A stretch of DNA of 64,000 bases from an uncultured Acidobacteriota bacterium (GTDB lineage Bacteria; Acidobacteriota; Terriglobia; UBA7540), in contig CAZKXX010000005.1 in assembly GCA_964556705.1 (NCBI GenBank), forward strand, positions 197-64,196, written 5' to 3'. The position numbers and the translations under genes were made by a program. The notes beneath the pieces were generated by a model. That model saw only the letters and a list, made by a program, of their open reading frames with translations. It was not told the origin of the DNA and did not search any database. Every line of letters starts with the position of its first letter. Position 1 is the stretch's first letter. Shown here in pieces: positions 29,537 through 54,359 of this stretch.

Positions 29537-29782
29537 ATGCGATACGCGGTCTCGCCGGGTGGTTTGCTGGTTCACGCTCGCGATGATTGGCCTTGCGCGG
29601 TCTGCCGGCCGGACGGCACGGCGGAACGCCGCGGCCTTCTCCTCTGCACGCGTTGCGCCCAGGGAATGATCCTCGCCGTCGAGGCGGGCGTGGAAGGGCC
29701 GCGGGCGCTGCTCGACGAACTGACGGACGCCCTGGTGTTGCTCGAGGGCGGCGAGTCCATGGCACAACCCTCGCTGGACTGA
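29537..29782 (+). CDS. small 4-Cys zinc-ribbon protein (81 aa), hypothetical
   Basis: The ATG at 29537 follows GGAGGAGG and gives MRYAVSPGG...WPCAVC-x13-CTRC.... GC3 is high. Confidence 0.45.
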   Translation: MRYAVSPGGLLVHARDDWPCAVCRPDGTAERRGLLLCTRCAQGMILAVEAGVEGPRALLDELTDALVLLEGGESMAQPSLD

Positions 29783-29891: not shown

Positions 29892-30395
29892 ATGACCCCT
29901 GTGCGACAGCGTCGCAGCCCTCGACTGGTGGTCCGGCTCCCCATCCGCGTCTTCGGAATCGATTATCGCGGCTTCGACTTTGTCGAAGACACGCGGACGC
30001 TGGTGGTGAACCTGCACGGGGCCAAGATTCCCCTCGAACGCCAGCTCATGCCCGAGCAGGAAATCGTGATCCAGAGCAAGACGACGAATCGCGAGTCCGT
30101 GTTCCGCGTGGTGGGCGCGGTCTCGGCGGGGGATGCGGAGGGGATTTCCTGGGGGGTCGAGTGCCTGAGTCCCGACGACAACGTCTGGGGGATTCAGTTC
30201 CCCGCCCTCGCCCCACAGGACCAGACGCAGGTCCGGCTGGAAATCGAGTGCCCACAGTGCCGGCGGCATGAGACGCTGCACATCGACGAGCGGACCGCTT
30301 CCTCCCTCTTGAGCGGCGAAGGCGTCCAGCGCGAGTGCCGCTCCTGCGGAACCGTCGTCTTGTGGAGGCCGGCCCCGGCCCCCAAGCCCGCCTGA
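29892..30395 (+). CDS. PilZ-like domain + 4-Cys zinc-ribbon protein (short paralogue)
   Basis: The ATG at 29892 gives MTPVRQRRSPRLVVRLPIRVFG...EDTRTLVVNLHGAKI...FRVVG...WGVECL...NVWGIQFP, then ECPQC-x24-CRSC. It aligns along its full length with the N-terminal halves of 31569..32405 and 42652..43491. Confidence 0.7.
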   Translation: MTPVRQRRSPRLVVRLPIRVFGIDYRGFDFVEDTRTLVVNLHGAKIPLERQLMPEQEIVIQSKTTNRESVFRVVGAVSAGDAEGISWGVECLSPDDNVWGIQFPALAPQDQTQVRLEIECPQCRRHETLHIDERTASSLLSGEGVQRECRSCGTVVLWRPAPAPKPA

Positions 30396-30399
30396 TTCC

Positions 30400-30720
30400 T
30401 TACTGTTCCCGGTAACCCAGAATGTCGGCGCGCACGCCGCGCAGGATGCGTCCCAGGTGTTCGCTTCCGCGGTCCAGCCTGACCGCCCAGGAAATGTCCT
30501 GGATGAGGATGCGGTATTTCTGGAACTCGCACTCCTCGGGCAGCAACAGCTCGTCGCTTTGGTTGATTTCCTGAAAGCGGATCTCTTTGGCTTCCAGATC
30601 CACTTCCGGCGCCACGACGCGCGCCACGACGCGGCCCTTCTGATAGATCGCGTCGGACTCGCGCCCCGCGGAGCCCGCGGCGCCGGGTTCGGAAGTCAGC
30701 TTGGCCGTCTCGTTGCTCAT
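30400..30720 (-). CDS. hypothetical protein (106 aa)
   Basis: It has a strong GC3 bias and a clean ATG and TAA. I recognised no family. Confidence 0.5.
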   Translation of the reverse strand: MSNETAKLTSEPGAAGSAGRESDAIYQKGRVVARVVAPEVDLEAKEIRFQEINQSDELLLPEECEFQKYRILIQDISWAVRLDRGSEHLGRILRGVRADILGYREQ

Positions 30721-30804
30721 CGTCGAAAAAACCTCGTGCAGGAATTGTGGGAGCGGCGTCCCCGACCAGGCCGGAGGATTCGCAAACCGTTGCGACAGGC
30801 GACG

Positions 30805-31467
30805 CTACGGCTTCTTGACGCTCACGGAGAACCCGCCGGGGCCCACGTCCAGGAACTGCGTTTCGAGTTGCGGGTGGGTCCTGACGGCCTGGATGAAATC
30901 CGCCAGCGCGTCGCGCAGGTTGCGCGTGTTGTGAGCGACGATCACTCCGCCCGGCGGGACCATCGGCAGCGTCATCTCCAGGTACTTGACGTAATCCTGT
31001 TTCCAGGCGTCGATGAAAACCACTTCGAAGGGGCCCTGCAGCCCGGGGATTTCCTTCAACGCGTCACCGTGAACGAGCGTGATGAATTTTTCGACGCCGG
31101 CCACGCGGAAATTCTCGCGCGCCAGTTGCGCGCGCGTGTCGTTGATCTCGAGCGTCGTGACGTGCCCGCCGGTGCGCCGCGCGCCCATCGCCAGCCAGAT
31201 GGTCGAATAGCCGTTCGACGTGCCGACTTCGAGGACGCGCTGGGCGTTCAACTTCACCACCTGGTCGCGCAGAAACGCGCCTTCGTTCGCATCCACATTC
31301 ATCATTCCCGTCTGGTTACGGGGCATCCACGCGAGCCGCTCGAGCGCCGGCCGGTCGAGCGCCTCGAAGTTGTCCGCGCCGGCCCGCGCGGCGAGCCCCG
31401 CCGCGAGCGCCAGCGCCATCACCGCACCGCAGCACCAAACCACCGAGCGTTTCAGAATCCGTCTCAT
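30805..31467 (-). CDS. class I SAM-dependent O-methyltransferase (family 3, caffeoyl-CoA OMT-like) with N-terminal signal peptide
   Basis: It has VLEVGTSNGYSTIWLA (SAM motif I) and VFIDAWKQDY. The N-terminus MRRILKRSVVWCCGAVMALALAAGLAARAGA looks like a signal peptide. Confidence 0.7.
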   Translation of the reverse strand: MRRILKRSVVWCCGAVMALALAAGLAARAGADNFEALDRPALERLAWMPRNQTGMMNVDANEGAFLRDQVVKLNAQRVLEVGTSNGYSTIWLAMGARRTGGHVTTLEINDTRAQLARENFRVAGVEKFITLVHGDALKEIPGLQGPFEVVFIDAWKQDYVKYLEMTLPMVPPGGVIVAHNTRNLRDALADFIQAVRTHPQLETQFLDVGPGGFSVSVKKP

Positions 31468-31568
31468 GCTTTTCCCCTCTCGCCCTGCCTGGGATGACCG
31501 ATATCCAGTTTCTCCGATTCGCGAAAATCCGGCAAGGGGGAAGCGTCCGGAAAAGGCGGCGAGCAGCC

Positions 31569-32405
31569 TCAGCCCTGGTTCGCCTCGAAGCGCACGCCGT
31601 AGAGGCGGCGCGACGAGCCGCCGATCGCCGCGCTGCGCACGATCCGGGCTGGCGTTGCGGGCGCTTTGCTTTTCTCCTCATACGGGCAGGTCACGACGAC
31701 GCCCTGGCCCACCTGGTAGGGCCTCGAACTGATGAAGCAGAGACCGCTCGGCGAGACGTTCTCCGTGTGGGCGATTTCTTCCTGGCCGTCGAAATCGCGA
31801 ACGCGCAGCGGGAGTTGAAGCGCCTCGCGCGGTTCGGCCCGCTGCTCGCGCCGCGCGATTTCCTCGCGCGCCTGCTCGAACAGGTCCGTCTCCTCGGGCG
31901 GGCCTTCCATGGCGATGCGCCGCTCCGGGTAGCCCCACGCCGTTTCGGCCGCGCAGCGCGAGCACTTGCGCGTCAGGATGCCCGCCGACCGCAGCACGTC
32001 CACTTCAATCATCGACAGCCGTTCGAGCACCACGCGCTGGCAGCCGCGGCACTCCAGCAGCGCCGTCGGCGGCATCGCCCGGTCTTCTGACGGCGGCGGA
32101 AAATCAATGTCCCAGATGTTGTCGCGCGCGCGCAGGCATTCGATGCCGTACTCGCCGCCTTCTTCCGTGAACGGAATGAGCGGGCCCACAACGCGGAACT
32201 CGGCTTCGCGGTGCGTGGCGAGGTTGACCACCGTGACCTTCTGAGAAGATTTGAGTGGACGGAAGATGCGGATGTGCGCGCCGTAACGGTTCACGTTCAA
32301 GGTGCGCGCGTCCTCGATGAAGGGAAATCCCTTCGGGTGAGTCCCCATCACCCAGAGCGGCACCGTCAGCGTGACGCGCTCCGACCGCCTCTTTTCCGCG
32401 CCCAT
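31569..32405 (-). CDS. PilZ-like + 4-Cys zinc ribbon + canonical PilZ protein
   Basis: The N-terminal domain has RRSER...NVNRYGAHI. The ribbon is ECRGC-x24-CSRC. The C-terminal domain has RAEPR...LPLRVRD...TENVSPSGL (RxxxR plus NxSxxG). Confidence 0.75.
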   Translation of the reverse strand: MGAEKRRSERVTLTVPLWVMGTHPKGFPFIEDARTLNVNRYGAHIRIFRPLKSSQKVTVVNLATHREAEFRVVGPLIPFTEEGGEYGIECLRARDNIWDIDFPPPSEDRAMPPTALLECRGCQRVVLERLSMIEVDVLRSAGILTRKCSRCAAETAWGYPERRIAMEGPPEETDLFEQAREEIARREQRAEPREALQLPLRVRDFDGQEEIAHTENVSPSGLCFISSRPYQVGQGVVVTCPYEEKSKAPATPARIVRSAAIGGSSRRLYGVRFEANQG

Positions 32406-32585
32406 CGATTCTCCGCGAAATGCTTCGTCGGCTCGGACTGAGTCTAGTCGCCGCCGAGCCGCGAAGCAAGGTGTCGGCGAAATTTCCGGGAGCGGGTTAT
32501 TCTTCTGGTTAACAAGTATTCTAAATTTCGGCCGCGCGGCGGGCCTGATCTCTAAAAACCCCTAGGTTGCCTGGAATCAACAACC

Positions 32586-32627
32586 TGGCGGCTTTCACAA
32601 CCAATATTCAATAACTTGGCGGCTTTG
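32586..32627. repeat. direct repeat TGGCGGCTTT x2 (31-nt spacing) inside a low-GC 475-bp intergenic region
   Basis: The copies aacCTGGCGGCTTTCAcaacc (32586-) and aacTTGGCGGCTTTGAtcttg (32617-) lie upstream of the minus-strand PilZ gene 31569..32405. Confidence 0.5.
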
Positions 32628-32880
32628 ATCTTGCCCCCATTTTGATGCAACGCATTGAAATGGCTCGGGATAAGAGAAATCGAAAAGTGGCACTTTTTCG
32701 TGTTTGCAAGCGTTTTGGCGCCGAGTCCTATTTTTGAAGTTTGGAAACACATATCGTCCGCGGCCCATGTTCCGCGGGAGAAACCGGAAACTCGAAATTC
32801 GAGTGGCGGCCGCGACGGCGCGCCAGCTTCCAATATCCAATTTCCAGTTTTTTTGCTGACTACGGACCAAGGACTGCGCG

Positions 32881-34083
32881 CTATTGCGGACGCTTCATCT
32901 GACTTAAGGCAGACAGGGCAGGTCGTTGGCCCCGAAGTGGAGCAAAGGGGGCAGGGCCGGTGATCCGCGCTGATTCGCCCTCCCGATCTCCGAGACGCTC
33001 TCGCAGCCAGGAGAGGATCTCTCGCACAACCGGGCCTTCATCAACGCGGCCGTTTTGACCTTTGACTGCGTCTTCGGGCCGGGAATACACGACGAAGTGA
33101 TGGTCCGTCTTGGGAATGACGACGACCCGTCCGTTGCCGGGGCGATTTTGACTAACGATTCGCGCAATCAACTCCGCGCTGCGAGCGTCTTCATACCAGT
33201 CGTATTCCGCGTAAAAAACCAGGACAGGACTGCGCACCTGGTTCCAGGCCTGCGTCCAGTTCTGATCCTGGGCTTGCTGATGGAAGGAGGCCGGCCGGCC
33301 GTAGAGCAGGTTTCCCTCCGCCCCTACGATTTTCGACCAAACGGCCCCCAGCTCCGGACTTTCGGCGGCGATCAGCAGCGGAGACTTCTTCTGGACCAGG
33401 TAAGCGAAAAGAAAGGCGGCCACGCTCTTCATCTCGTCGTTGAGCGTGTCGCCGGAGACTCCCGAGAGTTCGCGGAAGTTGCGCTCAAACACCAGCATGC
33501 GCTCAAACCAATTGCGCGCGCCCGCGCCCCAGACGATGATGCCGGCCACCTCCTGATGGGCCGCGACGAGCGGCGCGTAAGTACCCCCGATGCTGGCTCC
33601 AAAAATGACCATCTTCCCGGGGTCCACCCACTCGGATGATTTGAGCGCTTCAAGCGCCTGCACGTGGTCAGAGAGTTCGGTGCGGTAGTCGAGCGCGGAA
33701 CACGGTCCTCCTTCGCTGTCTCCCACGCCGCGCTTCTCCGTTCTCATCATGACCACGCCGGACTCCTGCGCCACCCGACGCATCATGCGGCTCCAGCCAT
33801 CCTGAGCTGAGCCCGGAAGCTCAATGGAGTCGCAGGAGAGCCACTGCACGAAGAGAATTGCGGGGAACTTGCCGCTTCGTCCCTCGGGCTTGGTCAGAAT
33901 AGTGCGCAACCGGACTCCATCGCGTGTCTTGAGAACGTCATAGACGCTGTCCAAGCCGGGTATTGTTTCCAGGGGCCGGTTGCCAGCCCTCGGCAGGTTG
34001 CCACGGAGCATGGATTCGGCCTGAGCGATCCCGGTGGAGACGAAACATACAGTGAGCAAACATCCGAGGACAAATGCCTTCAT
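32881..34083 (-). CDS. secreted alpha/beta hydrolase (S9/dienelactone hydrolase-like)
   Basis: The ATG at 34083 follows GGGAGG and gives the signal MKAFVLGCLLTVCFVSTGIAQA. The nucleophile elbow is GASIGG, and a late HH is present. Confidence 0.7.
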   Translation of the reverse strand: MKAFVLGCLLTVCFVSTGIAQAESMLRGNLPRAGNRPLETIPGLDSVYDVLKTRDGVRLRTILTKPEGRSGKFPAILFVQWLSCDSIELPGSAQDGWSRMMRRVAQESGVVMMRTEKRGVGDSEGGPCSALDYRTELSDHVQALEALKSSEWVDPGKMVIFGASIGGTYAPLVAAHQEVAGIIVWGAGARNWFERMLVFERNFRELSGVSGDTLNDEMKSVAAFLFAYLVQKKSPLLIAAESPELGAVWSKIVGAEGNLLYGRPASFHQQAQDQNWTQAWNQVRSPVLVFYAEYDWYEDARSAELIARIVSQNRPGNGRVVVIPKTDHHFVVYSRPEDAVKGQNGRVDEGPVVREILSWLRERLGDREGESARITGPAPFAPLRGQRPALSALSQMKRPQ

Positions 34084-34397
34084 GAGGGAGCACCTCCCTG
34101 GCTCTAAGACAGGATTGCAGCCCTTGGGTTGCGGGCGCCTGCGCTCTGGCAAGGTTCGTGAGTAGGCTCAAGGAGAGGAACATCATGGCCGGGGTGTTCA
34201 TTCCGGCTAAAATGTTCTTGACTCGCGGCCTTCGGGGCATAGGCTCAGTGCGGTCCATGGATTGAGCGCATCACTCCTTCCATTTGACGAAGACCGCTTG
34301 CTTTTTCTTCCCTCGATCGGGGCCGGATTCCGAGGTCAGAGGGGAGGCCCTCCAACGGGTAGGATCTCCGCAGCAGCGAAGGACTCGGGAAGAAAAA

Positions 34398-34991
34398 ATG
34401 GCGCATGACCGTCTTATGAGCGTGAGCCCGGACCAGGCTCTACAACTGCAGCCCGACCTCATCGAGGCATGCCGCCGAGGCGAGCGGGAGGCCATTCGTG
34501 TGTTTTATGATGCGTACAAGGATGGGGTGTTTTCGCTCGCGTACCACATCCTGGGGGACGCGGCCTCTGCCGGGGACGTCACCCAGCAGGTTTTTCTGAA
34601 GGTCTTCTCGCGCATCGGGCAGTATCGCGGCGATGGAAGCTTTTCGGCCTGGCTTCACCGCCTGGTCGTCAACGAATGCCTGGATGAGCGACGGTCCCGG
34701 CGCCGGTTCGTCTCCCTGGAGATCGGCGCGGCGGACGGCGAGATTCCGGTCGAGAGTTCCCAGGAGCGAAATTACCTTAAGGGACAGCTCGCCGCGGCGG
34801 TCCACGCAGCCCTCGCCCAGCTCAAGCCGGAGTTCCGCGCGCCGGTCGCGCTGCGTTATCTCAAGGGGCTCTCTTACGAGGAAATCGGCAGTGTACTCGG
34901 CTGTTCGAGCGGCACTGTAGCCTCCCGGCTGAACCGGGCGCATAAGATGCTGGCCAAGAAGCTCGCGCCGTGGCGCGGGATGCTGGGGTGA
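34398..34991 (+). CDS. ECF (group IV) sigma-70 factor
   Basis: Region 2 reads FYDAYKDGVFSLAYHILGD...DVTQQVFLKVF...FSAWLHRLVVNECLD. Region 4 reads LRYLKGLSYEEIGSVLGCSSGTVASRLNRA. Confidence 0.85.
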   Translation: MAHDRLMSVSPDQALQLQPDLIEACRRGEREAIRVFYDAYKDGVFSLAYHILGDAASAGDVTQQVFLKVFSRIGQYRGDGSFSAWLHRLVVNECLDERRSRRRFVSLEIGAADGEIPVESSQERNYLKGQLAAAVHAALAQLKPEFRAPVALRYLKGLSYEEIGSVLGCSSGTVASRLNRAHKMLAKKLAPWRGMLG

Positions 34992-34999
34992 GGATCAAC

Positions 35000-35881
35000 A
35001 TGCTTTGGAGTCACGTTCGCAAAGACCTTTCGGCGTATTGCGAAGGGCAGCTTCCGGCGGACTCGGCGCGGCGCGTGGCCGAGCACCTCAAGCGCTGCGA
35101 CCAGTGCCGCCGTGAATGCGAAGAGGTCCGGCTCGGCATCGCCTTCGCCCGCCAACTGCGGCCCGCCAATGCGCCTGAGGCGCTCTGGGCCGAGATCGAA
35201 TCGAAGCTCAATGCCGAAGATTCGACCCGGTCAGATGGGCACCCGGCCGCACGCGCTGCGCTCGCCTTCTGGAAACCCGCCGTGGTCGTGGCGGCGGCCC
35301 TGCTCGTTGCGCTGGCGGTGCTGATGGCCCGGCGGCCCTCGCCCATCGCGCCCCGCACGGTGGCGCCCCCGGTTTTTCTCGACCTCGGCGACTATCTGCG
35401 ACCCCTGCAAGCCGCGAGCAGCGACGCCAGCCGGCAAGCGGTCCTCAGTGCGCCGCCGCGCTTCGCGCCGCAGGAGTTGCCTGCAGTGTTGCGCGCGGCG
35501 GGCCTTCGCGAGGCTCAAATCTCCGCCCTGCCGGAGTTCCGCCTGGCCGCCCACCGGGCCGCAAAGCTGGAAGGTATGGAAATTGTCCAGCTCGTTTACA
35601 CGCGCGATGATGAGGCGTTCTCGGTCTTCGTCGCGCCTGACCGTGTAACCTTCGGCTTTGGAAGGGAATCGGCCGTGGAAGCCCTCGTAGGCGGTATTCG
35701 CTGTCTGAAAGTCGATTGCCCCAAGCAGGAAACCTACGCCTTCACTGAGGCCGGTTTCCGCTGCGTGCTGGTTTCGAAATCGCTCGACGCCGAGCGCGCC
35801 GTCGCCATCATCAAGCACTTCATGACCGCGCAGCGGCCGGAGGGTTCAAGGGGCCGCCACGGGCGCGGCGGCAATTCCTGA
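35000..35881 (+). CDS. anti-sigma factor (zf-HC2, single TM)
   Basis: It has HLKRCDQCRRECEE, the TM segment VVVAAALLVALAVLMA, and it lies immediately downstream of the ECF sigma gene. Confidence 0.7.
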   Translation: MLWSHVRKDLSAYCEGQLPADSARRVAEHLKRCDQCRRECEEVRLGIAFARQLRPANAPEALWAEIESKLNAEDSTRSDGHPAARAALAFWKPAVVVAAALLVALAVLMARRPSPIAPRTVAPPVFLDLGDYLRPLQAASSDASRQAVLSAPPRFAPQELPAVLRAAGLREAQISALPEFRLAAHRAAKLEGMEIVQLVYTRDDEAFSVFVAPDRVTFGFGRESAVEALVGGIRCLKVDCPKQETYAFTEAGFRCVLVSKSLDAERAVAIIKHFMTAQRPEGSRGRHGRGGNS

Positions 35882-35976
35882 TGGACAGGGAAAAATTCGG
35901 CGAGGGCGCGGCTCAACTCAGGCCGCACCAACCGGCGTTTCCGGAGAATCGCCGGGCGCGTCAACGAAACCGCAAT

Positions 35977-36267
35977 CTAATTCATCCGTTCAAGGCCGGC
36001 TTCGGTGGGCCGCTGCGCGCCCGCCGTGCGCACCCATACGACGCGGTAATCCCCGAAAGGCGTTTCGCCCCAGGGACAAACCACAGACACCGATTGTCCG
36101 GTTTTCAGCGCTGTCCCCGTCTGGATGCGGAGACCGTGCGGCGAAAAGTCAACCGTGGAAGCCACCTGCTCCGCAGTCCCATCGTCTGCTGTGAAGCGCA
36201 GGGTGATGGGAAGCCTGCTGGGAATTCGGCCTGAGCGGCGGTGGACTTCCTGAGCGGCGTGGGTCAT
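35977..36267 (-). CDS. single-domain PilZ protein (96 aa)
   Basis: It carries both canonical c-di-GMP-binding motifs, RRSGR...LPITLRF...VDFSPHGLRI. Confidence 0.7.
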   Translation of the reverse strand: MTHAAQEVHRRSGRIPSRLPITLRFTADDGTAEQVASTVDFSPHGLRIQTGTALKTGQSVSVVCPWGETPFGDYRVVWVRTAGAQRPTEAGLERMN

Positions 36268-36539
36268 CGAAAACCTCCTTCGATGACTGGCCAGAGAAGA
36301 CGCGTCCCCTCCCCCTAACTATACTCTCGCAACTGCAAACGTCAATAAATTGTTGAGGGGGCAAGAAATTACCGGGCGGCAGGGTTTTGCCGTGAGCCCC
36401 TTCGAAAAGCCGCGGACATTCTGTGGCCCAGGCGATCCTTCGAGAGTCGAACAGTCCGGAGTCGCATTCTCGTTGCCGGGAGCAGGATACGTGCCTATCA
36501 TGGAGAGGTCTGACAAAGGGTCATGGTGAGGTGCGGGAG

Positions 36540-37844
36540 ATGAAAAAATCCCTTTTTGTCTTGGCGACTGCGGGCTTTCTGACCGGAATTCTGAGCGCGC
36601 TGCCTGAACCGGGCGATGCTCGCGGCTCCGCGTCGGTGCCGGCGAGCGTCGAAATGGTCGTGCCGCGTGGCGAAGCGCAGTCCTACTGGCCGCGCTGGCG
36701 CGGGCCCTCGGGCCAGGGACTGGTGACAGACTCCGGCTACCCCGACCGCTGGTCGGATACCGAAAACGTCCTTTGGAAATCGCCGGTTCCCGGCCGCGGA
36801 CATTCCTCGCCCATCGTCTGGGCGGACCGCATCTTTCTGACCACGGCGTTTGAGGACGAGCGCGCCGCGGTGCTCTGCTATCGCCGCACGGACGGGAAGC
36901 TCCTGTGGCAGGCGGAAGTGCCCGACCGGACGCCCGAACGCACGTACCCGAAAAACAGCAACGCGTCGCCCACGCCTTCCACGGACGGCCGCCTGGTTTA
37001 CGCCTCGTTCGGGAACAAAGGCCTCGTCGCCGTGGATTTTGACGGCAAGGTGGTCTGGCACCGCTCGCTGGGGAAGATTGACAACTATCACGGCTCGGCG
37101 GGCTCGCCGCTGCTCTACAAGGACCGCCTCATCATCTACCAGGACCAGCGCGGCGGCGCCTTTGTGGCGGCGTTCGACACGAAAACCGGCAAGCCGCTGT
37201 GGCACACCGACCGCCGCGCGTCGGTCGGCTGGGGAACGCCCGTGGCGGTGCGCGTCGGCGACCGCGACGAAATCATCGTCAGCAGCCAGGAGCGCGTCAC
37301 CGCCTACGACCCGCAAACCGGCAAGGAACTGTGGCACTGCTCGGGAAACACGGCGGAAGTGATTCCAACGCCCGTGGTGGGGCACGGCATGGTCTTCTGT
37401 TCTTCGGGGCGCGCCGGCCCGACGCTCGCCATCCGCCCGGGCGGACGCGGCGATGTGACCGAAACGCACCTGGTGTGGCAATCGCCGCGCGGCTCGCCGT
37501 TCGTCCCCTCGCCGCTCCTTTACGGCGATTTGCTTTATCTCGTGAACGACATGGCGAGCATCGCGACCTGCCTGGATGCGAAGACGGGTGAGACGGTGTG
37601 GCAGGGGCGGCTCGGCGTGGCTCGCAAGGAGGGCTTTTCGGCTTCACCCGTGGGCGTGGACGGGAAAGTGTTCTTCACGAACGACGACGGCGAGACGTTC
37701 GTGCTCAAGGCGGGACGCGAGTTCAGCCTGCTGCACGTGAACCGTCTGAATGCAAGCGTGCTGGCTTCACCCGCGCTCGTGGACGGCAGGTGGTACTTCC
37801 GCACCGACCGCGAACTGATTGCCATCGGAAAATGTGGCGGGTAA
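36540..37844 (+). CDS. secreted PQQ-like / BamB-like beta-propeller repeat protein
   Basis: The ATG at 36540 gives a signal peptide. Repeated motifs follow (SSPIVWADRIFL, KLLWQ, GKVVWH, GKPLWH, GKELWH, GETVWQ, SPALVDGRWYF). Confidence 0.75.
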   Translation: MKKSLFVLATAGFLTGILSALPEPGDARGSASVPASVEMVVPRGEAQSYWPRWRGPSGQGLVTDSGYPDRWSDTENVLWKSPVPGRGHSSPIVWADRIFLTTAFEDERAAVLCYRRTDGKLLWQAEVPDRTPERTYPKNSNASPTPSTDGRLVYASFGNKGLVAVDFDGKVVWHRSLGKIDNYHGSAGSPLLYKDRLIIYQDQRGGAFVAAFDTKTGKPLWHTDRRASVGWGTPVAVRVGDRDEIIVSSQERVTAYDPQTGKELWHCSGNTAEVIPTPVVGHGMVFCSSGRAGPTLAIRPGGRGDVTETHLVWQSPRGSPFVPSPLLYGDLLYLVNDMASIATCLDAKTGETVWQGRLGVARKEGFSASPVGVDGKVFFTNDDGETFVLKAGREFSLLHVNRLNASVLASPALVDGRWYFRTDRELIAIGKCGG

Positions 37845-37929
37845 GAATCTCCGCGAGGTCCGCGCCACGCGAGGAGCCGAATTCGCTTGCCTGAATTTCT
37901 CGAGACGGGTCGAAGGGCTTGGCGTCCCC

Positions 37930-38007
37930 GACGGGATTTGAACCCGTGTTACCGCCGTGAAAGGGCGGTGTCCTAGGCCGGGCTAGACGACGGGGACGAC
38001 AATTTCC
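37930..38007 (-). tRNA. tRNA-Glu (anticodon TTC), CCA encoded
   Basis: The reverse complement reads gtccccg-tc-gtct-agcccggccta-ggac-a-ccgcc-ctTTCac-ggcgg-taac-acggg-ttcaaat-cccgt-cggggac-g-cca. Confidence 0.9.
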
Positions 38008-38209
38008 CATCCTAGCAGCGGCGCGCCAAAAGTGTCAAACGCTGCGAGGGCGCGCCGAGGGCCGCGAATGGGCTCGCGCCGAGCAGATTCCCCGCCGCGG
38101 CAGCTGCGCCTCCCTTGACATCCTTCCGGCGGCGTCGATAAAATTTAGAACATCTCGATAACCCAGAAGGACGGGTGCTGAGCCCGCCCGGTGAAAAGGA
38201 GGATGTCCG

Positions 38210-38518
38210 ATGCTGAGAAAGTTGGCATTGCTTACGGCAGTCAGCGGTCTGATGTTGTGGACCGCGCAGGTCAATTGGGCCATCCCCGCGCCTGGCGAGA
38301 AAACTCACTCGATGAAGGCTGAGGTGGTCTCGGTGGATACGGCTGGGAAGAAGATCACCATCAAAGACGAAAAAGGCGAGACAAAGACCGTGCCGGTGCT
38401 CGATTCGGCGGCCGCGATGCTGAAGAACTTCAAGGCCGGCGACAAGGTCACGCTGACCTGTAAGGACAGCGACAAGGGCGAGCATCAGGGCGTCAGCGAC
38501 ATCGCCAAAGCCACCTAA
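38210..38518 (+). CDS. small secreted protein (102 aa), hypothetical
   Basis: It has the signal peptide MLRKLALLTAVSGLMLWTAQVNWA and the RBS AAGGAGGA. A hairpin plus T-tract terminator follows it. Confidence 0.65.
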   Translation: MLRKLALLTAVSGLMLWTAQVNWAIPAPGEKTHSMKAEVVSVDTAGKKITIKDEKGETKTVPVLDSAAAMLKNFKAGDKVTLTCKDSDKGEHQGVSDIAKAT

Positions 38519-38544
38519 TCCCTTCCCCCTCTTGGAATCAACTA

Positions 38545-38579
38545 CCGGCTCGGGAAGCGGCGTCCCGAGACCGGCTTTT
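38545..38579 (+). terminator. rho-independent terminator
   Basis: The hairpin ccggctcggga-agcggcg-tcccgagaccgg is followed by CTTTT, 27 nt after the stop at 38518. Confidence 0.6.
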
Positions 38580-38979
38580 CCGCCTCAACCGGGAACTTTC
38601 GACGAGGCCAACTTCATGCCGGAGGGGGACGTCACGTCGCCGCCCATCACATTTTCTTCAAGTATTCGAGGTCGAAGATCAGGGCCAGCCTGGTTGGATC
38701 CTGCGTAGAAGTCTCCGTTCCCGGACAGGCACTGCGAACGTCGCAACCGCCGGCGTAACGCAGGATGAGCGTGTGGACGCGGATTCCCGATCAGACAAAG
38801 GCGGAGAGAAAACCTCGATTTGCGCACGAGGATCGGCGCGTGCCGCCAAAAGCGTCAAGAAGGTTTCCGCCTGGACACTGGCGGTTTGACGCGCGTCAGG
38901 ATTCCATCTCCGTTCCTCGCCGAGGCGCGTGCAAGGAATCAAGCCGACGAGGTCCGCAACATGGGGCGAGAAACGCGCC

Positions 38980-41900
38980 TCACGCGCGGTCGGCGGGGAC
39001 GGCGTCAAGGACTTCGCGGACTTTGCGCTCCAGGGTCTCCGGGGAAAAAGGTTTGGGGAGATATCCGGCGAGGGGATCGCGCACGCCGCGCCGCGCCTGT
39101 TCCTGGTCCGCATATCCGGAGATATAGAGCACGCGAAGGCGGGGATGGAGGGCGCGGGCGTGCTCGGCGAGTTCGTGCCCGCTCATTTCCGGCATGACGA
39201 TGTCGGTGAGGAGGAGGTGCAAGGGCCCGCCGTGCTCGCGCGCGCGGTCCAGCGCTTCGACGCCTCCGCGCGCTTCCAGCACGCGATAGCCGCGGGATTC
39301 CAGCACCATGCGGACGAGGTTGCGCACCGCATCGTCGTCCTCAACCACCAGAATCGTCTCACTCGCCGGGCGCGCCGCCGGGCGATGCCCAGCGAGCCTT
39401 TCCGCGTCGGTGGCCACGCCCACGCGCGGCAGATAGACGCGGAAGACGGTCCCTTCGCCTTTCTGGCTGGACACGGAGACCGAGCCGCCACTCTGCCGAA
39501 CGATGCCGTACACGGTAGCCAACCCCAGGCCCGTCCCCTTTCCCCGGTCCTTGGTGGTGAAGAAGGGCTCGAAAATGTGCGGAAGGATTTCGGGATCGAT
39601 TCCGCAGCCTGTATCGCTGACCGAGAGCGCCACGTACGAACCGGGGGCCAGCGTGGCGTGCTGCGTCGTGTAAGTCTCGGTGAGCTCCACGTTGGCGGTG
39701 GAAATGGTAACGCGTCCGCCCCGGGGCATGGCGTCGCGGGCGTTGACGGTCAGGTTGAGCAGCACCTGGTCAATCTGGCCCGGGTCGGCCTTGACGGGGC
39801 CCAAGTCGGAGGCGAGATCCAGGACAAGCTCCACGTCCTCGCCGATCAGGCGCCGGAGCATCTTGTGCATGTCGCGGATGGCCGCGTTCAGGTCGAGCAC
39901 GTGCGCCTCGACCGGCTGGCGGCGGCTGAAGGCGAGCAACTGCTGGGTGAGCGCGGCGGCGCGGCCTCCCGCTTTGCGGATCTCGTCGAGATAGTCCCGC
40001 GCGCGGCCTTGCGGGGGGAGGATGGCCTGCAACAGTTCGCTGTAACCGGTGATGGCCGTGAGCAGGTTGTTAAAATCGTGCGCGACGCCGCCCGCCAGGC
40101 GTCCCAGGGCTTCCATCTTTTGCACCTGGCGGAGCTGCTCCTGAAGCGCGCGCTCGCGCGTCACGTCACGTTCGACGGCAACGTAATAGGCGGGCCGCCC
40201 GGCGGCGTCGCGCACCGGGGAAATGACCGCTTCAGTTTCGACCAGGCTTCCGTCCTTCGTCCGGTTGATGAAGCACCCCGCCCACACTTCTCCCGCCTCG
40301 ATCGTTTGCCACAAGTGCCGATAGTAGGCGTCGTCCTGCCGTCCGCTCTTGAGGAAGCGGGGGTTCTTCCCCACGGCTTCCGCGCGCGTGTAGCCGGTGA
40401 CGCGCTCGAAGGAGGGGTTGACGTAAACAATTGTTCCGTCGAGTTCGGTAATCACGACACACTCGGCCGTGTTCTCGACCGCCGAGGCCAGCCGGCGGTG
40501 CTCTTCCTCCAGACGCTTGCGCTCCGTGATGTCTTCCAGCACGCCGACGAAGCCGGTGTGCCGGCCCTGCGCGTCGCGAAGGGGCGCGACGGAAAGGTTT
40601 ACGAGCACGGGCGAACCATCTTTCCGACGGCGCCACACTTCGATCCCCTTCACACCGTTCGCGTCCAAAGTCCTGCGCAGGATGGTTTCGAACTCGGCTT
40701 TCTTCTCCTCAGGAATGAAAGGAAGCGGGCGTCCCACCACTTCTTCGGCCTGCCACCCGAAGGTCTGCTCGGCGGCCGAGTTCCAGAGTTTTACGGTTCC
40801 GTCCGGCGCAATCACGTTGACGGCGACGGGCGAGGCTTCGATGATGGCGCGCAGCATTTCGCTCGATTCGTGCAGCGCGCGTTCGGTGAGAAGGCGGGGG
40901 CGGAGGTCGCGGAGAGCCGCATAGACGAGCGGCCCAGCGGACGTGTCCAAGCGGCTGAGGCTGATTTCGACGGGCACCTCGCCGCCCTCGGCCGAGAGGA
41001 CTTCGGCTTCCGCGGGCGTGTCCGGCGAAGCCGCGGCGTCGTCCCCGAGGCAGAGTTCATGCCGCCGGCGCAACTCATCGCGCAGGCGCTCCGGGAAGAG
41101 TCCCTCGAACGGCTGGCCGAGCATGTCCTCGTCCCGGAAGCCGAACAGTTGCCGCGCCCGCCGATTCAGGAAGACGATCCGCGCCTCGCGGTCCGAGGCC
41201 ACGATGGGGTGCAGTTGAGCCTCCAGCAGGGCGCGGAACCGCTCCTGTTCAGACTTCCATGCGCCCGCCAAAGTGTGCCGGCGACGGGCCGCGAGCAGGC
41301 CCGCGAGAGCCAGCAGCAGCAGGAGGGTCAGCGCTCCTTCTCGGACCGCCTTGGCGCGAAACTCCGCCATCACCTCTTCAAGGTCCACCTTCTGCACCAG
41401 GCCCCAGCCGGTGGCCGCAATGTGGCGGGTCGCCGCCAGCACCGCGACGCCACGATAGTCGCGGAACTCGCCCTCAACCTGACGGCCTTCCACTGCCGGC
41501 ACGGCCGCCGTGCCACTGTTCCAAGGGAACTGAACGGGCAAGTCCCCTTCTGGCCCGTGGCGGCGAGGAGAAAAGAACTCAACCTCGTTTCCGACGCGGC
41601 GGGCCAGCAACGTCTCGCCCGTCTCCGTCACCTCCCAGCGCGGCAGGAGGAGCGGATACAAGCTGGAGTCAGGATCCATTCTCAGCACGACCGCGCCCAG
41701 AGGCTTCGGCGGGAGCGCGCCAGCCGTCACCCGGGCCGCGTCGGAGACGGGAACGCCGACGCTGGCGAGACCGCCGGGGGTCATTTCGATCCGCCACCGG
41801 TTCCCTTCCATGACCTGACGCGCCAGTTCCTGGTTCTCCGCATCGAGGGGCGCACCCCGCGCGGTGCGGGCGACGGTCTCACCCTGCCGATTGACGACCT

Positions 41901-42291
41901 GTATGTCGCGGTAGCCGTAGGCGGCCGCCACATGGTCCAGGATTGATGAAAGGTGGCTCGCCTCAGCGTGAGCCCTTCGGGCGCCGGGACGGGAAGCGAG
42001 GATCTTCACGACCGTCGGAAAGCCCGCCACGACTTCCGCGTCCGCCTTTCTCTCCTTCAACCACACGGCGACGAGCTGGGCTTTTTCGTCGGCCAGGCCG
42101 GAAAGGCGGGACTTCCACGACTCCGTCGTCTCGATGCGCAGGCTGTGAAAGAGGTACGCGACGTAGGCGGCGCCGGCGAGGACGGCCAGCACAAACACCA
42201 GAACGTAATGACCCCAGGCCGCATCGGCGACCGGCGAGAACGTCCGCCGCCGGGATGGGTCCCGACCACCGATGGGCCTGACGGTCTTCAC
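38980..42291 (-). CDS. hybrid sensor histidine kinase: TM, periplasmic Cache-like domain, TM, about 3 PAS, HisKA, HATPase_c, receiver
   Basis: It has the H-box [17 protein letters not shown], the N/G boxes ([23 protein letters not shown]) and the receiver ILVVEDDD...[13 protein letters not shown]. The start is proposed as GTG at 42291 (RBS GGGAGA), because the 113 codons up to the ATG at 42630 are Arg/Pro-rich junk. Confidence 0.85.
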
Positions 42292-42651
42292 TTGATCTGT
42301 GTCTCCCAAGTGCCGGTGCCTCGACGGAGGGGATGGCACCCCTCTTCTTCCCGCTCGACACCCCTCTGCCCCCCCGGCGCGCACGCTGGCTCCTCTGCCG
42401 CGCGGCGAAGGTTCAATGGCGCTTATCACATGACGTATCGGCGGAATTTCAAACAGTCTTGAGTTGAGGCTGGGCCTCGGGCTTTTTGACCGTCGTTCCC
42501 CGCGCCGGCGATTTCGCCGCGACGCGAGGGAGTTGGCTTCAGTTAGGAAGGCCCGGACCGCGGGTTTAGGCCGTCTTCTTGACTCGAAGATGCGTGAGGG
42601 AGGACATCCGGCGGCGGCGTGCGGGCTCAAGCTCTGGAGCGCGGGTGCGAT

Positions 42652-43491
42652 TTACGCTTCGCGCTCGTAGCGGACGCCATAGAGGTGTCGCGCGGGTCCG
42701 CTGTTTTCGAACCGCCGCGCGACGCGCCCGCGCATTTCGGGGTTCTGGCCGGAGGGATCGTAGGGGCAGGTCACCATCAACGCCTCGCCGACTTCGTAAA
42801 CCTTCTCGCTGGTGAAGGCGAGACCGACGCGCGAGACGTTCTCACTTCGCGTCAGTTCCTCGTTGCCGTACCAGCTTCGCACGCGCAGGGGAAGGCGCAT
42901 GAGCGAGCGGGGCGCGGCGCGGCGCGAGCCCTCCGCCTGATCCAACTGGAGAATTTCGCGGAAGACGCGGTCCATTTCCGGCCCCGGCGCAGGCATCCCC
43001 ACCTGCTTTTCCACGTGTCCCCACGGCGTGGATTTCCCGCACCCGCCGCACTCGCGCGTCAGCAGGCCGGAGGCCTGGAGGACATCCACTTCCACCAGCG
43101 ACAGGCGGGAGAGCTGGACTTCGTGACATCGCCGGCATTCCAGCAGCACGCTGCACGCCTGCTCGCCTCCGTTGGCAGGGGGAAATTCGATTCCCCAGAC
43201 GTTGCGGCTTTCCTCGAGGCATTCAACGCCCCATTCGCCGCCCTTCTGGGTGGGAGGCTGGGTTGGGCCGACGACACGGAACTCCGCCCGCTGATTGGCG
43301 ACCAGGTTGGTAACGCGCACCGTCTCCCCGGAGTTGAGGAATCGCGCCAGTTGAATTCGCGCCCCGTGACGGTTCACGGCGAGCGTCCGCGTTGTATCCG
43401 CGAACGGGTGGCCGTTGCGGTCTTTTCCTTCCACACGGATCGGGATGGTGATCAGAAGGCGTTCGCTGCGGCGCCTGAGAGAAACATTCAT
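42652..43491 (-). CDS. PilZ-like + 4-Cys zinc ribbon + canonical PilZ protein
   Basis: The N-terminal domain has RRRSER...AVNRHGARI. The ribbon is ECRRC-x24-CGGC. The C-terminal domain has RAAPR...LPLRVRS...SENVSRVGL. It is collinear with 31569..32405. Confidence 0.75.
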   Translation of the reverse strand: MNVSLRRRSERLLITIPIRVEGKDRNGHPFADTTRTLAVNRHGARIQLARFLNSGETVRVTNLVANQRAEFRVVGPTQPPTQKGGEWGVECLEESRNVWGIEFPPANGGEQACSVLLECRRCHEVQLSRLSLVEVDVLQASGLLTRECGGCGKSTPWGHVEKQVGMPAPGPEMDRVFREILQLDQAEGSRRAAPRSLMRLPLRVRSWYGNEELTRSENVSRVGLAFTSEKVYEVGEALMVTCPYDPSGQNPEMRGRVARRFENSGPARHLYGVRYEREA

Positions 43492-43782
43492 GGCAGAATC
43501 ATCCGGCGTTGCCGAACCTTTCTCTGAAGACGTTCAGTTTAGGGCGACTGGAGGGCGAAATCAAGACGCTTTGGGCGCGGATCACCACCTGCGCCGTAGT
43601 CCGGCGTCTCGCTTTCTTGTGGCCCGAACCGCGCGCGGCCGCGTCGGGGCGCGGCCGGCGACTTGTTGTCGCGGCGCAGGAAGGACGTTGACGCTTCGCG
43701 AGCTCGCAAGGTATCTTGCGGAGCGCGCCCGAAGCCCGCAGGCATGCCGGTCCGATCCCGTCGGAGGCAGGAAGGACACCCG

Positions 43783-44703
43783 ATGAAACTCCACCACGTG
43801 GTCGAAGCCCAGCAGTTTGACCAGGCCACGCTGCTCGACCTGCTCCAGACCGCCGCCGAGATGGAAAAGCTGGTCGAGCAGGGGGGCAGCAACCAGTTCC
43901 ACAACCGAATTATGGCCACGCTCTTCTACGAGCCCTCGACGCGCACCCGCTTTTCGTTTGAGACGGCGATGCTGCGGCTGGGCGGGCGCGTCATCTCCAC
44001 CGAAAACGCCGCGATGTTTTCCTCCGTCGCCAAGGGCGAAACGCTCGAGGACACGGTGCGCATGTTGAACGGCTACGCCGACGTCATCGTGATCCGGCAC
44101 TTCGAGGTCGGCGCCGCGAAGCGCGCCGCCGCGGTCTCGCGCGTCCCTGTCATCAACGCCGGAGACGGCGTCGGGCAGCACCCCACGCAGGCCCTCCTCG
44201 ACCTCTACACGATTCGCAAGGAAATCGGCCACATCGACGGACTGCGCATCGCCATGGTCGGCGACCTCGCGCAGGGCCGCACCGTCCGCTCGCTCGCCTA
44301 CCTGTTGAGCAAATTCCGCGGCGTGAGAATTTACTTCGTCGCGCCGGCGCTGCTGAAAATGAAGGAAGACATCCTCGAACACCTGCGCGAGAAACACGTC
44401 GAGTATGTCGAAGAAACTTCGCTCGAGAAAGTCCTTCCGGAAGTGGAGGTGGTCTATCAGACCCGCGTGCAGAAGGAGCGCTTCGGCGACCGCATCGCCG
44501 ACTACGAGCAGTGCCGCGGAGTTTACGTCCTGACCGCCGAAAGCCTCCGGCTCATGAAACCGAACGCCATCATCATGCACCCGCTGCCGCGCCTCGACGA
44601 AATCGCCATGGAAGTGGACCAGGATCCGCGCGCTGCCTATTTCCGTCAGGCGCAGAACGGGCTCTACGTCCGCATGGCACTGCTGGCGAACGTCCTCGGA
44701 TAA
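43783..44703 (+). CDS. pyrB: aspartate carbamoyltransferase catalytic subunit
   Basis: It carries the STRTR, HPTQ and HPLPR motifs. The ATG at 43783 follows GGAGGCAGGAAGGA. Confidence 0.9.
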   Translation: MKLHHVVEAQQFDQATLLDLLQTAAEMEKLVEQGGSNQFHNRIMATLFYEPSTRTRFSFETAMLRLGGRVISTENAAMFSSVAKGETLEDTVRMLNGYADVIVIRHFEVGAAKRAAAVSRVPVINAGDGVGQHPTQALLDLYTIRKEIGHIDGLRIAMVGDLAQGRTVRSLAYLLSKFRGVRIYFVAPALLKMKEDILEHLREKHVEYVEETSLEKVLPEVEVVYQTRVQKERFGDRIADYEQCRGVYVLTAESLRLMKPNAIIMHPLPRLDEIAMEVDQDPRAAYFRQAQNGLYVRMALLANVLG

Positions 44704-51433: not shown

Positions 51434-52912
51434 ATGCCGGTACTGATCGAACACATCACCGAATTCGTGATCGCAGTCCTGATTCTGGTCGTGCTGGGGA
51501 CCGGAGCGCTGGTGGCGGCGGCCATCGCGCGACGCCAGCGGCGGGAGCGCTACTTCCAGCGGATCGATGACCTCCGCCAGCGATACAAGCCGGTGATCAC
51601 CGCCGTTCTGGCGCAAAAGCTCGAATACGTCCGCGGCGTCGAACTGTTGCGCGGCATCTCCGGGTTCGACCGCGAGTATGTCCTCGAGCAGCTTTGTCTG
51701 GAGGTTCATGCCACCGGCGAAGAGATTCCCATCCTGCGTCACCTCTGCGAGGACCTGGGCCTGGTGCGGCTGTGGCAGTCGCGGCTTTCCGGGCAGATGA
51801 ACATCGCTTCCCTGCGCGAAGCCTTCACGCGGCCCGAGGGATTTCTGGAGTGGTTCGGGGGACTGCGTTTTCTGCTGCGCGCCAAAAGCGCCGACAACCT
51901 GGGCATCATCCGCCATCGGGCGAGCTGGCCGCTGCTGGTGAAGGCGCTGGAGGATTCGCATCCGGACGTGCAGAGCGTCGCCGTACGGTCGCTCGCGGCG
52001 ATTCAGGAGCCGGAGAGCTTTCCGGCGCTGGTCCAGAGGCTGCACGACGTGGTTCTGAAACCCTCCACGCGCCTTTCGCTGCGCGCCGTCAAGACGGCGC
52101 TGGTGAGCTTCCCGCTCTCCTACGGCCCGAAGCTGATTCCCTCCCTGACCCACTCGCACCGCCGGATCCGTTTTCTGGCCACCGACGTCATCCGGGAAAT
52201 CGTCGAGCGCCTGGCGGGACAGGACGAGGAGTTCATGCTCGACCCGCGCGACTTTTCGCCGGCGCTGGCGGAAGTCTTCCTCACCCAGCTCTGCTTCGAC
52301 GAAAACCCGGACGTGCGGGCGCGCGCCGCGCCGGTGGTGGCCTATCTGGCCGACCCGCGGTCCACGCCCGTGCTGCTGACGCTGCTCGAAGACGCGCAGT
52401 GGTTCGTTCGGCTGCACACCGTTCGCGCCTTCGCCAGGCGGCGATTCATCTCGCAGGCGGCCCACCTGGCCCACCGGCTGACCGACCCGCACTGGATGGT
52501 CCGCGAGGCGGCGGCGCGCACCATGCTGGTCTACGGACAAGTCGGCAACGAGCAGCTGGCCACGCACTTCCTGAGCACCGAGGACCGCTACAGCCAGGAA
52601 CAGATCGCCGACGAAATGCAGCGCGCCGGACTCATCCCTTCGCTCCTCGCTCAATACGCCACCGAGAGCGGCGGCTCGACGGGCCGCGTTCTGGAGCGGC
52701 TGGTGAGCATGGGGAAGACCAGTTACCTAGTCAGCCTGTTGGCGCAGACTTCCGAACGCTCAGTCCGTCAGAAATTTCTCCAGAAATGGGGACGCAGCAG
52801 CGACCCGCAAATCAAGGGCTGGGTGGTGGACGTCGCTTCGAGCGAGGTTGACCCGACTCTGCGCACGCTGGCCGTCGAGTTCCTGCGGACGAGGGTCGAA
52901 CCGGGGGCCTGA
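51434..52912 (+). CDS. N-terminally TM-anchored HEAT-repeat protein
   Basis: The TM segment is FVIAVLILVVLGTGALVAAAIA. Repeated HEAT signatures follow (DSHPDVQSVAVRSLAAI, HRRIRFLATDVI, NPDVRARAAPVVAYL, QWFVRLHTVRAFA, HWMVREAAARTM). Confidence 0.7.
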   Translation: MPVLIEHITEFVIAVLILVVLGTGALVAAAIARRQRRERYFQRIDDLRQRYKPVITAVLAQKLEYVRGVELLRGISGFDREYVLEQLCLEVHATGEEIPILRHLCEDLGLVRLWQSRLSGQMNIASLREAFTRPEGFLEWFGGLRFLLRAKSADNLGIIRHRASWPLLVKALEDSHPDVQSVAVRSLAAIQEPESFPALVQRLHDVVLKPSTRLSLRAVKTALVSFPLSYGPKLIPSLTHSHRRIRFLATDVIREIVERLAGQDEEFMLDPRDFSPALAEVFLTQLCFDENPDVRARAAPVVAYLADPRSTPVLLTLLEDAQWFVRLHTVRAFARRRFISQAAHLAHRLTDPHWMVREAAARTMLVYGQVGNEQLATHFLSTEDRYSQEQIADEMQRAGLIPSLLAQYATESGGSTGRVLERLVSMGKTSYLVSLLAQTSERSVRQKFLQKWGRSSDPQIKGWVVDVASSEVDPTLRTLAVEFLRTRVEPGA

Positions 52913-52925
52913 GGAGCATCGGCTC

Positions 52926-54356: not shown

Positions 54357-54359
54357 ACC

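Follow-up and report, generated by a model that had tools for sequence, protein, structure and literature searches.

Three paralogues share a PilZ-like barrel and a four-cysteine ribbon

A 64,000-nucleotide stretch of DNA from an uncultured Acidobacteriota bacterium (Terriglobia, UBA7540; GenBank assembly GCA_964556705.1, contig CAZKXX010000005.1, positions 197 to 64,196; hereafter, the window) carries three genes, designated A, B, and C, that encode a common N-terminal module composed of a PilZ-like barrel and a four-cysteine ribbon, and a fourth gene, D, that encodes a stand-alone PilZ domain. The four open reading frames (ORFs) lie at the coordinates given in Table 1, and their translations agree. 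When a family hidden Markov model (HMM), built from 34 homologues, was run on the six-frame translation of the entire window, A, B, and C were the only matches besides D, with E values of 1.5e-56 (A), 2.4e-124 (B), and 6.3e-124 (C); D matched at E 3e-8, over positions 3-91, which correspond to the N-terminal barrel. Overall identity is 44-45% between B and C, and identity across the shared module is 33-36% between A and B. The strength of these matches, which is far above chance, confirms that A, B, and C are genuine paralogues of an undescribed family. The family is a barrel-plus-ribbon unit (NR), usually followed by a second PilZ domain with canonical motifs (NRC), which is present in B and C and absent from A.

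An initial annotation of this DNA, made from the sequence alone, had described a collinear N-terminal module and ribbon common to A, B, and C, and the family HMM recovers this arrangement. All of the quoted motifs were located, namely RRSxR, FRVVG, W.I.FP, the two CxxC pairs, and the C-terminal RAEPR...NVSPSG of B and RAAPR...NVSRVG of C. The ribbon spacer, given there as 24 residues, is in fact 25 residues long (CxxC-x25-CxxC) in all three proteins. The single-domain PilZ annotated as D matches the Pfam PilZ family at E 7.6e-8; D is a canonical PilZ protein and stands outside the ribbon family.

Table 1. Positions of the PilZ-related genes, their motifs, and neighboring genes in the window
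Feature	Position	Strand	Description
A	29892..30395	+	Short form, 167 aa; PilZ-like barrel (residues ~12-91) and predicted C4 ribbon
A motifs			RRSPR 29910..29924; VVNLHGA 30003..30023; CPQC 30249..30260; CRSC 30336..30347
B	31569..32405	-	Long form, 278 aa
B N-terminal PilZ-like barrel	32091..32405		RRSER 32376..32390; NVNRYGA 32277..32297
B ribbon (predicted)			CRGC 32040..32051; CSRC 31953..31964; linker helix, residues 170-186
B C-terminal PilZ	31584..31847		RAEPR 31827..31841; NVSPSG 31743..31760
C	42652..43491	-	Long form, 279 aa
C N-module motifs			RRSER 43459..43473; AVNRHGA 43360..43380; CRRC 43126..43137; CGGC 43039..43050
C C-terminal PilZ	42667..42924		RAAPR 42907..42921; NVSRVG 42823..42840
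D	35977..36267	-	Stand-alone canonical PilZ, 96 aa; RRSGR 36226..36240; DFSPHG 36133..36150
p81	29537..29782	+	81 aa, four cysteines; CAVC 29594..29605; CTRC 29645..29656
p106	30400..30720	-	106-aa hypothetical protein, convergent with A
Methyltransf_3 O-methyltransferase-like gene	30805..31467	-	Pfam PF01596, E 4e-23; hydrophobic N-terminus
GAF-GAF-PAS class III nucleotide cyclase	27250..29331	+	Pfam; upstream of p81 and A
Hybrid histidine kinase	38980..42222	-	dCache-PAS x3-HisKA-HATPase-REC (Pfam); downstream of C
Aspartate/ornithine carbamoyltransferase (OTCase)	43663..44703	+	Pfam; divergent from C

The C-terminal domain is a PilZ with canonical motifs, and the ribbon resembles a C4 zinc ribbon

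Conservation was counted across about 260 family sequences, with residue positions in B numbering, and Pfam PilZ (PF07238) matches were read against the gathering cut-off of 22.5 bits. The C-terminal domains of B and C exceed this cut-off with 45.4 and 46.4 bits, respectively; the match in B (E 1.1e-11) covers residues 187-274, and the C-terminal match spans positions 1-86 of the 102 in the PilZ model. Their motifs are the textbook forms of RxxxR and [D/N]xSxxG, which bears out the second canonical PilZ that had been proposed for both proteins. These two motifs are conserved in 97-98% of 222 homologues, with R189 retained in 217, R193 in 216, N/D216 in 218, Ser218 in 215, and Gly221 in 218. 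The C-terminal barrel is predicted to comprise six strands (199-273), and the protein ends at residue 278 without a helix.

The ribbon follows the N-terminal barrel after an invariant W-x-I-x-F-P segment. Its four cysteines, the loss of which in homologues had been named as grounds for rejecting the family, are present in 256, 256, 256, and 254 of 256 sequences, respectively, and Trp157 is present in 251. In the AlphaFold2 (AF2) model of B, the strands 114-119/125-129 and 144-148/153-158 bracket both CxxC pairs, with a helix inserted at residues 132-141. Further, basic residues beside the knuckles are conserved (Arg120 in 145 and Arg/Lys146 in 230 of the 256). Two CxxC β-hairpin knuckles with conserved cysteines, as seen in the model and the alignment, make this segment a predicted C4 zinc ribbon. 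A search of PDB sequences with the whole family profile, as well as with the ribbon of B alone, returned no matches; a ribbon-only profile found ribosomal protein bL33 as its best PDB matches, at a marginal E of 0.002. Among 30 ribbon segments compared with Pfam, each family was matched by 6 or fewer, none of which reached its own cut-off.

The N-terminal barrel is a PilZ paralogue with an altered second motif

An hhalign comparison of ~270 N-terminal domains with 220 C-terminal domains gave a probability of 97.7% (E 2e-12, 86 columns), in a register that places RRSxR on RxxxR and T-h-x-h-[N/S]-R-H-G on T-E-N-V-S-K-G-G. This alignment, together with (i) the match of D to the family HMM and (ii) the structural matches of the short form described below, identifies the N-terminal barrel as a true, near-canonical PilZ paralogue. 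The PilZ-like nature of this module, on which the initial annotation had made its claim depend, is therefore upheld by profile comparison and by Foldseek superposition onto canonical PilZ domains bound to cyclic di-GMP (c-di-GMP). Pfam recognition of the barrel varies: no PilZ stretch was reported for the N-terminal barrel of B, C contains two matched stretches (E 5.3e-12), and in one homologue (P0132) the N-module reaches E 2e-13.

The RxxxR motif lies in the N-terminal arm, as RRSPR in A and RRSER in B and C, and it is retained across the family (Arg6 in 255, Arg7 in 236, Ser8 in 222, and Arg10 in 256 of 259 sequences). AF2 confidence is low for this arm, as would be expected of a flexible arm in a ligand-free PilZ domain. 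The second motif does not match [D/N]xSxxG. In canonical PilZ domains, the D/N of this motif contacts guanine; in the N-terminal barrel, this column is mostly V, T, S, I, A, or L, and D and N are not among its six commonest residues. Position 39, the canonical serine column, is Asn in 176 of 259 sequences (68%) and Ser in 66 (25%), while the motif glycine, Gly42, is present in all 259. Moreover, the altered motif, xh[N/S]RHGA, is itself conserved (Arg40 in 227, His41 in 167, and Ala43 in 226 of 259). The earlier description, in which RxxxR is kept and the second motif is replaced by xVNxxG, is thus accurate for A and C, whereas B retains an Asn in the D/N column (NVNRYG).

Structure models

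AF2 modeled the short form A with a pLDDT (predicted local distance difference test) of 89.1 and a pTM (predicted template modeling score) of 0.81, and the long form B with values of 83.7 and 0.74, respectively. The long-form model comprises six-stranded barrels at residues 16-90 and 199-273, a ribbon at 114-158 that consists of two β-hairpins around a helix, and a linker helix at 170-186. The best PDB matches of A in Foldseek, all with a probability of 1.00, were Alg44 (4rt0 and 4xrn), MapZ (5xly), BcsA, and the PA0012 PilZ domain, which are canonical PilZ domains bound to c-di-GMP; the superposition with PA0012 (8u0i) gave a template modeling (TM) score of 0.78, normalized to the target, and a root-mean-square deviation of 2.5 Å over 93 columns. 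The long form instead matched MotI/DgrA (5vx6), PlzD (2rde), MrkH (5kec), PlzA (7mie), PP4397, and YcgR (5y6f), with alignments spanning about 280 columns.

Short forms, distribution, and modularity of the family

The nearest relatives of A are all short: its 29 best database matches are 163-234 aa long, have no Pfam annotation, and rank ahead of any long form. These A-type homologues keep RRSPR, the N/S-x-H-G-A motif, and the four cysteines. The start of A is placed at 29892 by NCBI (167 aa) and at 29928 by JGI (155 aa); we favor the NCBI start based on the orthologue alignment, since the JGI start would remove the conserved RRSPR. The short forms are a real subfamily, and the earlier observation that the 167-aa copy ends after the ribbon agrees with the NCBI call and with a distinct short-form clade. 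A truncation artefact was also considered for the short copy and was ruled out, because the short form has a clade and a synteny of its own. Some other short entries (P0106 and P0121) resemble fragments of long forms.

Among 1.84 billion cluster representatives (50% identity clusters), the NR profile found 3007 matches at E<=1e-3, of which 892 remained at a threshold of 1e-10 and 79 at 1e-30. In a genome survey of one-genome-per-species data, 48 of 49 loci came from metagenome-assembled genomes (MAGs) labeled Terriglobia, Acidobacteriota, or Acidobacteria; individual MAGs contributed two to four copies, and three or more is the usual number in a genome. The exception was a 3-kb contig binned as Anaerolineae. 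The family appears almost confined to soil Acidobacteriota, mainly the class Terriglobia, a restriction that is provisional because the scan patterns came from B-like sequences and bias the survey to B-like relatives.

Among 272 sequences, 197 have the NRC architecture (barrel-ribbon-PilZ) and ~30 consist of NR only. Other members (i) add a third PilZ domain (P0185, P0201, and P0247), (ii) add a transmembrane and coiled-coil tail to the barrel-ribbon unit (P0140 type), (iii) fuse an intact GGDEF cyclase to NRC (P0233), (iv) fuse a Ser/Thr kinase to the barrel-ribbon module (P0211), or (v) in a few cases, have two N-type barrels and no ribbon (P0193 type). The barrel-ribbon unit is autonomous and is reused across several architectures, and the family originated by tandem PilZ duplication, after which the first barrel lost its C-terminal helix.

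Genomic context

The neighborhood of A is conserved in other genomes. Among the ~28 A-type loci, defined by an identity to A of 41% or more, ~25 carry p81 upstream of the A-type gene on the same strand, typically at a distance of 110-150 nt and up to ~350 nt. Alignment of 26 p81 orthologues revealed an invariant WPCxxCRP-x11-LCxxCA motif and a helical tail; p81 in the window is 60% identical to its orthologue in locus L064. It is otherwise unannotated, and the JGI gene call at this position is only 38 aa long. The stop codons of A and p106 lie 4 nt apart, and p106 is found beside A-type genes in ~20 loci (metagenome loci together with L062, L063, and L064, where its orthologues are 58-65% identical). 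The Methyltransf_3 gene, which sits between p106 and B in the window, often comes after p106, with which it makes up a conserved convergent pair beside A-type genes; it accompanies A-type genes or p106 in L007, L062, L064, L068, L083, and L087. No Pfam or NCBIfam family was found for the N-module or the ribbon, and no Pfam family was found for p81 or p106.

The class III cyclase, for which a 76% identical orthologue occupies the same position in L064, is found upstream of p81 and A in 8 loci; most A-type loci lack it. In the compact L064 locus, the OTCase gene is followed by a divergent C-type gene, the cyclase, p81, and the A-type gene, and a 107-aa gene and a methyltransferase gene converge on this row. 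In L074, L075, L078, L079, L080, L082, and L118, p81-A is likewise preceded by a co-directional C-type gene; in these seven loci, no cyclase was detected between the C-type gene and p81-A, and the C-type gene abuts p81 in five. This arrangement, shared by L064 and the seven further loci, makes C-type and A-type genes frequent syntenic partners. In the window, the two halves are 12 kb apart and on opposite strands. One locus (L074) carries two A-type copies in tandem (7001..7486 and 8374..8859) downstream of a C-type long form.

C-type genes are always divergent from an OTCase-HTH-cytochrome c block, and the OTCase arrangement of the window is repeated in L005, L007, L059, L060, L061, and L064. 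In five of six contexts, the C-type gene is succeeded by co-directional PAS-containing signaling genes of variable kind: hybrid kinases, a MEDS-PAS kinase with receivers, or a PAS/STAS/anti-sigma-kinase/SpoIIE set. The hybrid kinase ORF downstream of C, at 38980..42630, is over-extended, as the 78% identical kinase of L061 aligns from residue 142 only; its real start is near 42222, which leaves a gap of ~430 nt to C (374-428 nt in orthologous loci). Translational coupling of C and the kinase, suggested by the apparent 21-nt gap, was ruled out since the orthologue places the true start ~136 codons downstream.

B has an O-methyltransferase gene and an alpha/beta hydrolase gene as neighbors. Elsewhere, B-like genes are commonly flanked by a second, divergent long-form gene, located ~1 kb upstream, and by a downstream gene for a 133-aa membrane/coiled-coil protein. 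The signaling genes that the initial annotation placed beside each copy are therefore present next to two of the three, namely a class III cyclase upstream of A and a hybrid kinase downstream of C, and absent next to B. It had also named, among possible partners to test, a "GT2/HEAT pair," which probably refers to a family 2 glycosyltransferase (GT2) gene and the three large ORFs that follow it (52848..63240, + strand), two of which were scanned and encode tetratricopeptide repeat (TPR) proteins. A link to these genes (52.8-63 kb) was dropped, as they lie 9 kb from C and have no conserved neighborhood with the family. The conserved neighbors are instead p81, p106, the O-methyltransferase, the GAF-GAF-PAS class III cyclase, and variable PAS signaling genes, which are mostly kinases.

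Proposed function and alternative readings

We consider it likely, with moderate confidence, that A, B, and C are small cytoplasmic c-di-GMP receptor/adaptor proteins of a lineage-specific family. They contain no enzymatic or DNA-binding output domain, which fits the dedicated adaptor family that had been suggested, although the GT2/HEAT partner proposed with it has no conserved link. The C-terminal barrel would bind c-di-GMP through RxxxR and [D/N]xSxxG, given that both motifs are complete and that one family member (P0233) is fused to a GGDEF cyclase. A nucleotide is probably also the ligand of the N-terminal barrel, and the simplest candidate is c-di-GMP bound with a changed affinity or stoichiometry; the RRSxR and motif glycine of this barrel are virtually invariant, although D/N is gone and Ser is mostly Asn, and it is chiefly the conservation of RRSxR within an unstructured arm that argues for a bound ligand. 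The ribbon would hold a structural zinc, as predicted, and provide a rigid interaction or docking surface, so that ligand binding may reorient the barrels and the ribbon and thereby change binding to a partner protein. The short form would most likely partner with p81 and/or the C-type long form, which are encoded alongside it in many genomes.

Several observations weigh against this reading. The N-module of A scores 17.3 bits against Pfam PilZ and is thus below the 22.5-bit cut-off, and the C-terminal helix of canonical PilZ domains is missing from both barrels in the AF2 models. Being below this cut-off and without the guanine-contacting D/N, the N-terminal barrel may not bind c-di-GMP. Further, the annotated ORFs of the window include no GGDEF, EAL, or HD-GYP gene, and a scan of its six-frame translation revealed no GGDEF or HD-GYP motif; instead of c-di-GMP enzymes, the conserved neighborhood contains PAS kinases and a class III cyclase (cAMP/cGMP-type). 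The gene neighborhoods of the long forms also vary, which makes any partner assignment conjecture.

A rather unlikely alternative is a YcgR/MrkH-type arrangement, in which only the C-terminal PilZ binds c-di-GMP and the N-terminal barrel and ribbon form a ligand-free interaction domain. RRSxR would then be kept for another purpose, for example to contact a ligand held in the other domain, a partner, or nucleic acid, and the short forms would be ligand-independent decoys or partners. The best full-length Foldseek matches (MotI, PlzD, MrkH, PlzA, and YcgR), the absence of the motif 2 D/N from nearly all members, and the frequent adjacency of A-type genes to a C-type long form are all consistent with it. 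Other observations speak against it. While the xPilZ N-terminal domains described so far have lost their binding motifs (10.1101/814665), RRSxR is 98-99% conserved here and lies in a low-confidence N-terminal arm, like that of ligand-free canonical PilZ domains; moreover, the serine is retained in 25% of the sequences and replaced by a hydrogen-bonding Asn in 68%, and the short form is structurally closest to ligand-bound canonical PilZ domains and not to PilZN-type domains.

The second motif is systematically altered and, through Arg40, His41, and Ala43, strongly conserved in its altered form, which could also mean that the N-terminal barrel senses another nucleotide, for example the cAMP or cGMP of the co-located class III cyclase or another cyclic dinucleotide, and that the long forms integrate two messengers. 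It would suit this proposal that the cyclase precedes p81-A in the same orientation in eight loci, with orthologues that are 76% identical. We regard it as improbable, given that most A-type loci have no cyclase, that retention of RxxxR suggests a guanine/phosphate ligand like c-di-GMP, and that a GGDEF fusion exists; to our knowledge, no PilZ domain binds a cyclic mononucleotide. A related and equally speculative notion is that the barrel-ribbon unit is a self-standing second-messenger receptor that acts in a hetero-complex with p81 and the C-type protein and whose altered pocket, made up of RRSxR and xh[N/S]RHGA, prefers a ligand other than that of canonical PilZ domains. This ligand may be a non-canonical cyclic dinucleotide or what the class III cyclase produces. 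If true, this would be a two-messenger integration module in Terriglobia with no counterpart in model bacteria. Least probable, in our view, is that the ribbon binds nucleic acid and that the proteins are c-di-GMP-dependent regulators of transcription or RNA, like MrkH and PlzA. Zinc ribbons are common among nucleic-acid-binding proteins, the structural matches include MrkH and PlzA, bL33 is the best PDB hit of the ribbon profile, and the basic residues Arg120 and Arg/Lys146 flank the knuckles. The similarity to bL33 is, however, marginal and limited to the knuckles, consistent matches to a ribbon or DNA-binding Pfam family were not obtained, and the membrane-anchored, kinase-fused, and GGDEF-fused variants suggest signaling at the protein level.

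Relation to known PilZ proteins

A survey of PilZ-related domains covers canonical, tetramer-forming, and divergent (xPilZ) domains, as well as tandem PilZ-PilZ proteins and the xPilZ-PilZ types PilZN to PilZN7, and it proposes internal PilZ duplication as the route to all xPilZ-PilZ proteins; the canonical PilZ structure carries a C-terminal helix (bioRxiv 10.1101/814665). Zinc, ribbon, and Acidobacteria are all unmentioned in it. Full-text literature searches for PilZ combined with zinc ribbon or with acidobacterial taxa returned nothing relevant, and no literature on c-di-GMP effectors of Acidobacteriota (Terriglobia) was found. Pfam recognizes only the C-terminal PilZ of B and C, and NCBIfam nothing specific; neither these databases nor the PDB nor the literature holds a record of the N-module joined to the ribbon. 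No earlier description of the architecture was thus found in these sources; the initial annotation had named such a description as a point on which its claim could fail.

The YcgR-like proteins (YcgR, MotI/DgrA, PlzD/VCA0042, MrkH, and PlzA), which are the best Foldseek matches of the long form, likewise have two PilZ-fold barrels in ~230-280 aa, a C-terminal PilZ with canonical motifs, and no enzymatic output. Unlike them, the present family has a ~50-residue C4 ribbon and a linker helix between the barrels, keeps RxxxR and an S/N-x-x-G remnant in its N-terminal barrel, and appears restricted to Acidobacteriota; a Pfam scan matched none of YcgR (PF07317), YcgR_2 (PF12945), and DUF5634_N (PF18672) at E<=1. 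The tandem PilZ-PilZ proteins (Bradyrhizobium Bll4394/Blr5568 and Sinorhizobium SMc00999) are also PilZ duplications, with motifs in both halves, whereas here, in a comparison by description only, both helices are missing and the first motif 2 lacks D/N. The family is intermediate between tandem PilZ-PilZ proteins, with motifs in both halves, and YcgR-like proteins, in which the N-terminal domain has lost its helix, with a ribbon in addition.

The stand-alone adaptors MapZ, PA0012, and the PilZ domain of Alg44, which are small and act purely through protein-protein contact, are the best structural matches of A; unlike these, A has a predicted C-terminal zinc ribbon, lacks the D/N-x-S signature, and is only a putative c-di-GMP binder. 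The bL33 protein of the Thermus type shares the two CxxC knuckles, in "LLEC..C" and "(R/K)xC..C..T" contexts and with similar spacing, whereas the ribbon described here contains an inserted helix and is always joined to a PilZ barrel, without evidence of common descent.

The family represents a familiar type of receptor in a new domain architecture rather than a new kind of system, and the catalogue of PilZ architectures gains a type with a predicted zinc ribbon. Acidobacteriota (Terriglobia) are among the most abundant bacteria of soil and peat, and the hundreds of clusters, the typically three or more paralogues per genome, and the GGDEF, kinase, and membrane fusions suggest that the family is probably a major messenger read-out in this phylum. 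The family is also a natural system in which to ask if RxxxR, combined with an S/N-x-x-G remnant that lacks D/N, suffices for ligand binding. The short forms are now annotated as "hypothetical protein" with no domain, and their PilZ kinship improves the annotation of many MAGs; p81 is an unexpected, conserved, small four-cysteine candidate partner gene in an abundant and poorly studied phylum.

Additional features of the loci

A promoter and terminator scan of 29.3-32.9 kb found nothing that exceeded the shuffled background. D is flanked by genes for an extracytoplasmic function (ECF) sigma factor with a zf-HC2 anti-sigma factor (34284..35881, + strand) and for a BamB/PQQ-like β-propeller protein (36423..37844, + strand). 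In many Terriglobia MAGs, full-length family genes form head-to-head pairs ~1 kb apart (L012-L014, L016-L018, L020, L022, L025, L030-L032, L035, L037, L038, L045, and L055), an arrangement that hints at hetero-pairing of paralogues and of which the window has no example. These pairs are often followed by the conserved 133-aa membrane/coiled-coil protein and an H+-pyrophosphatase.

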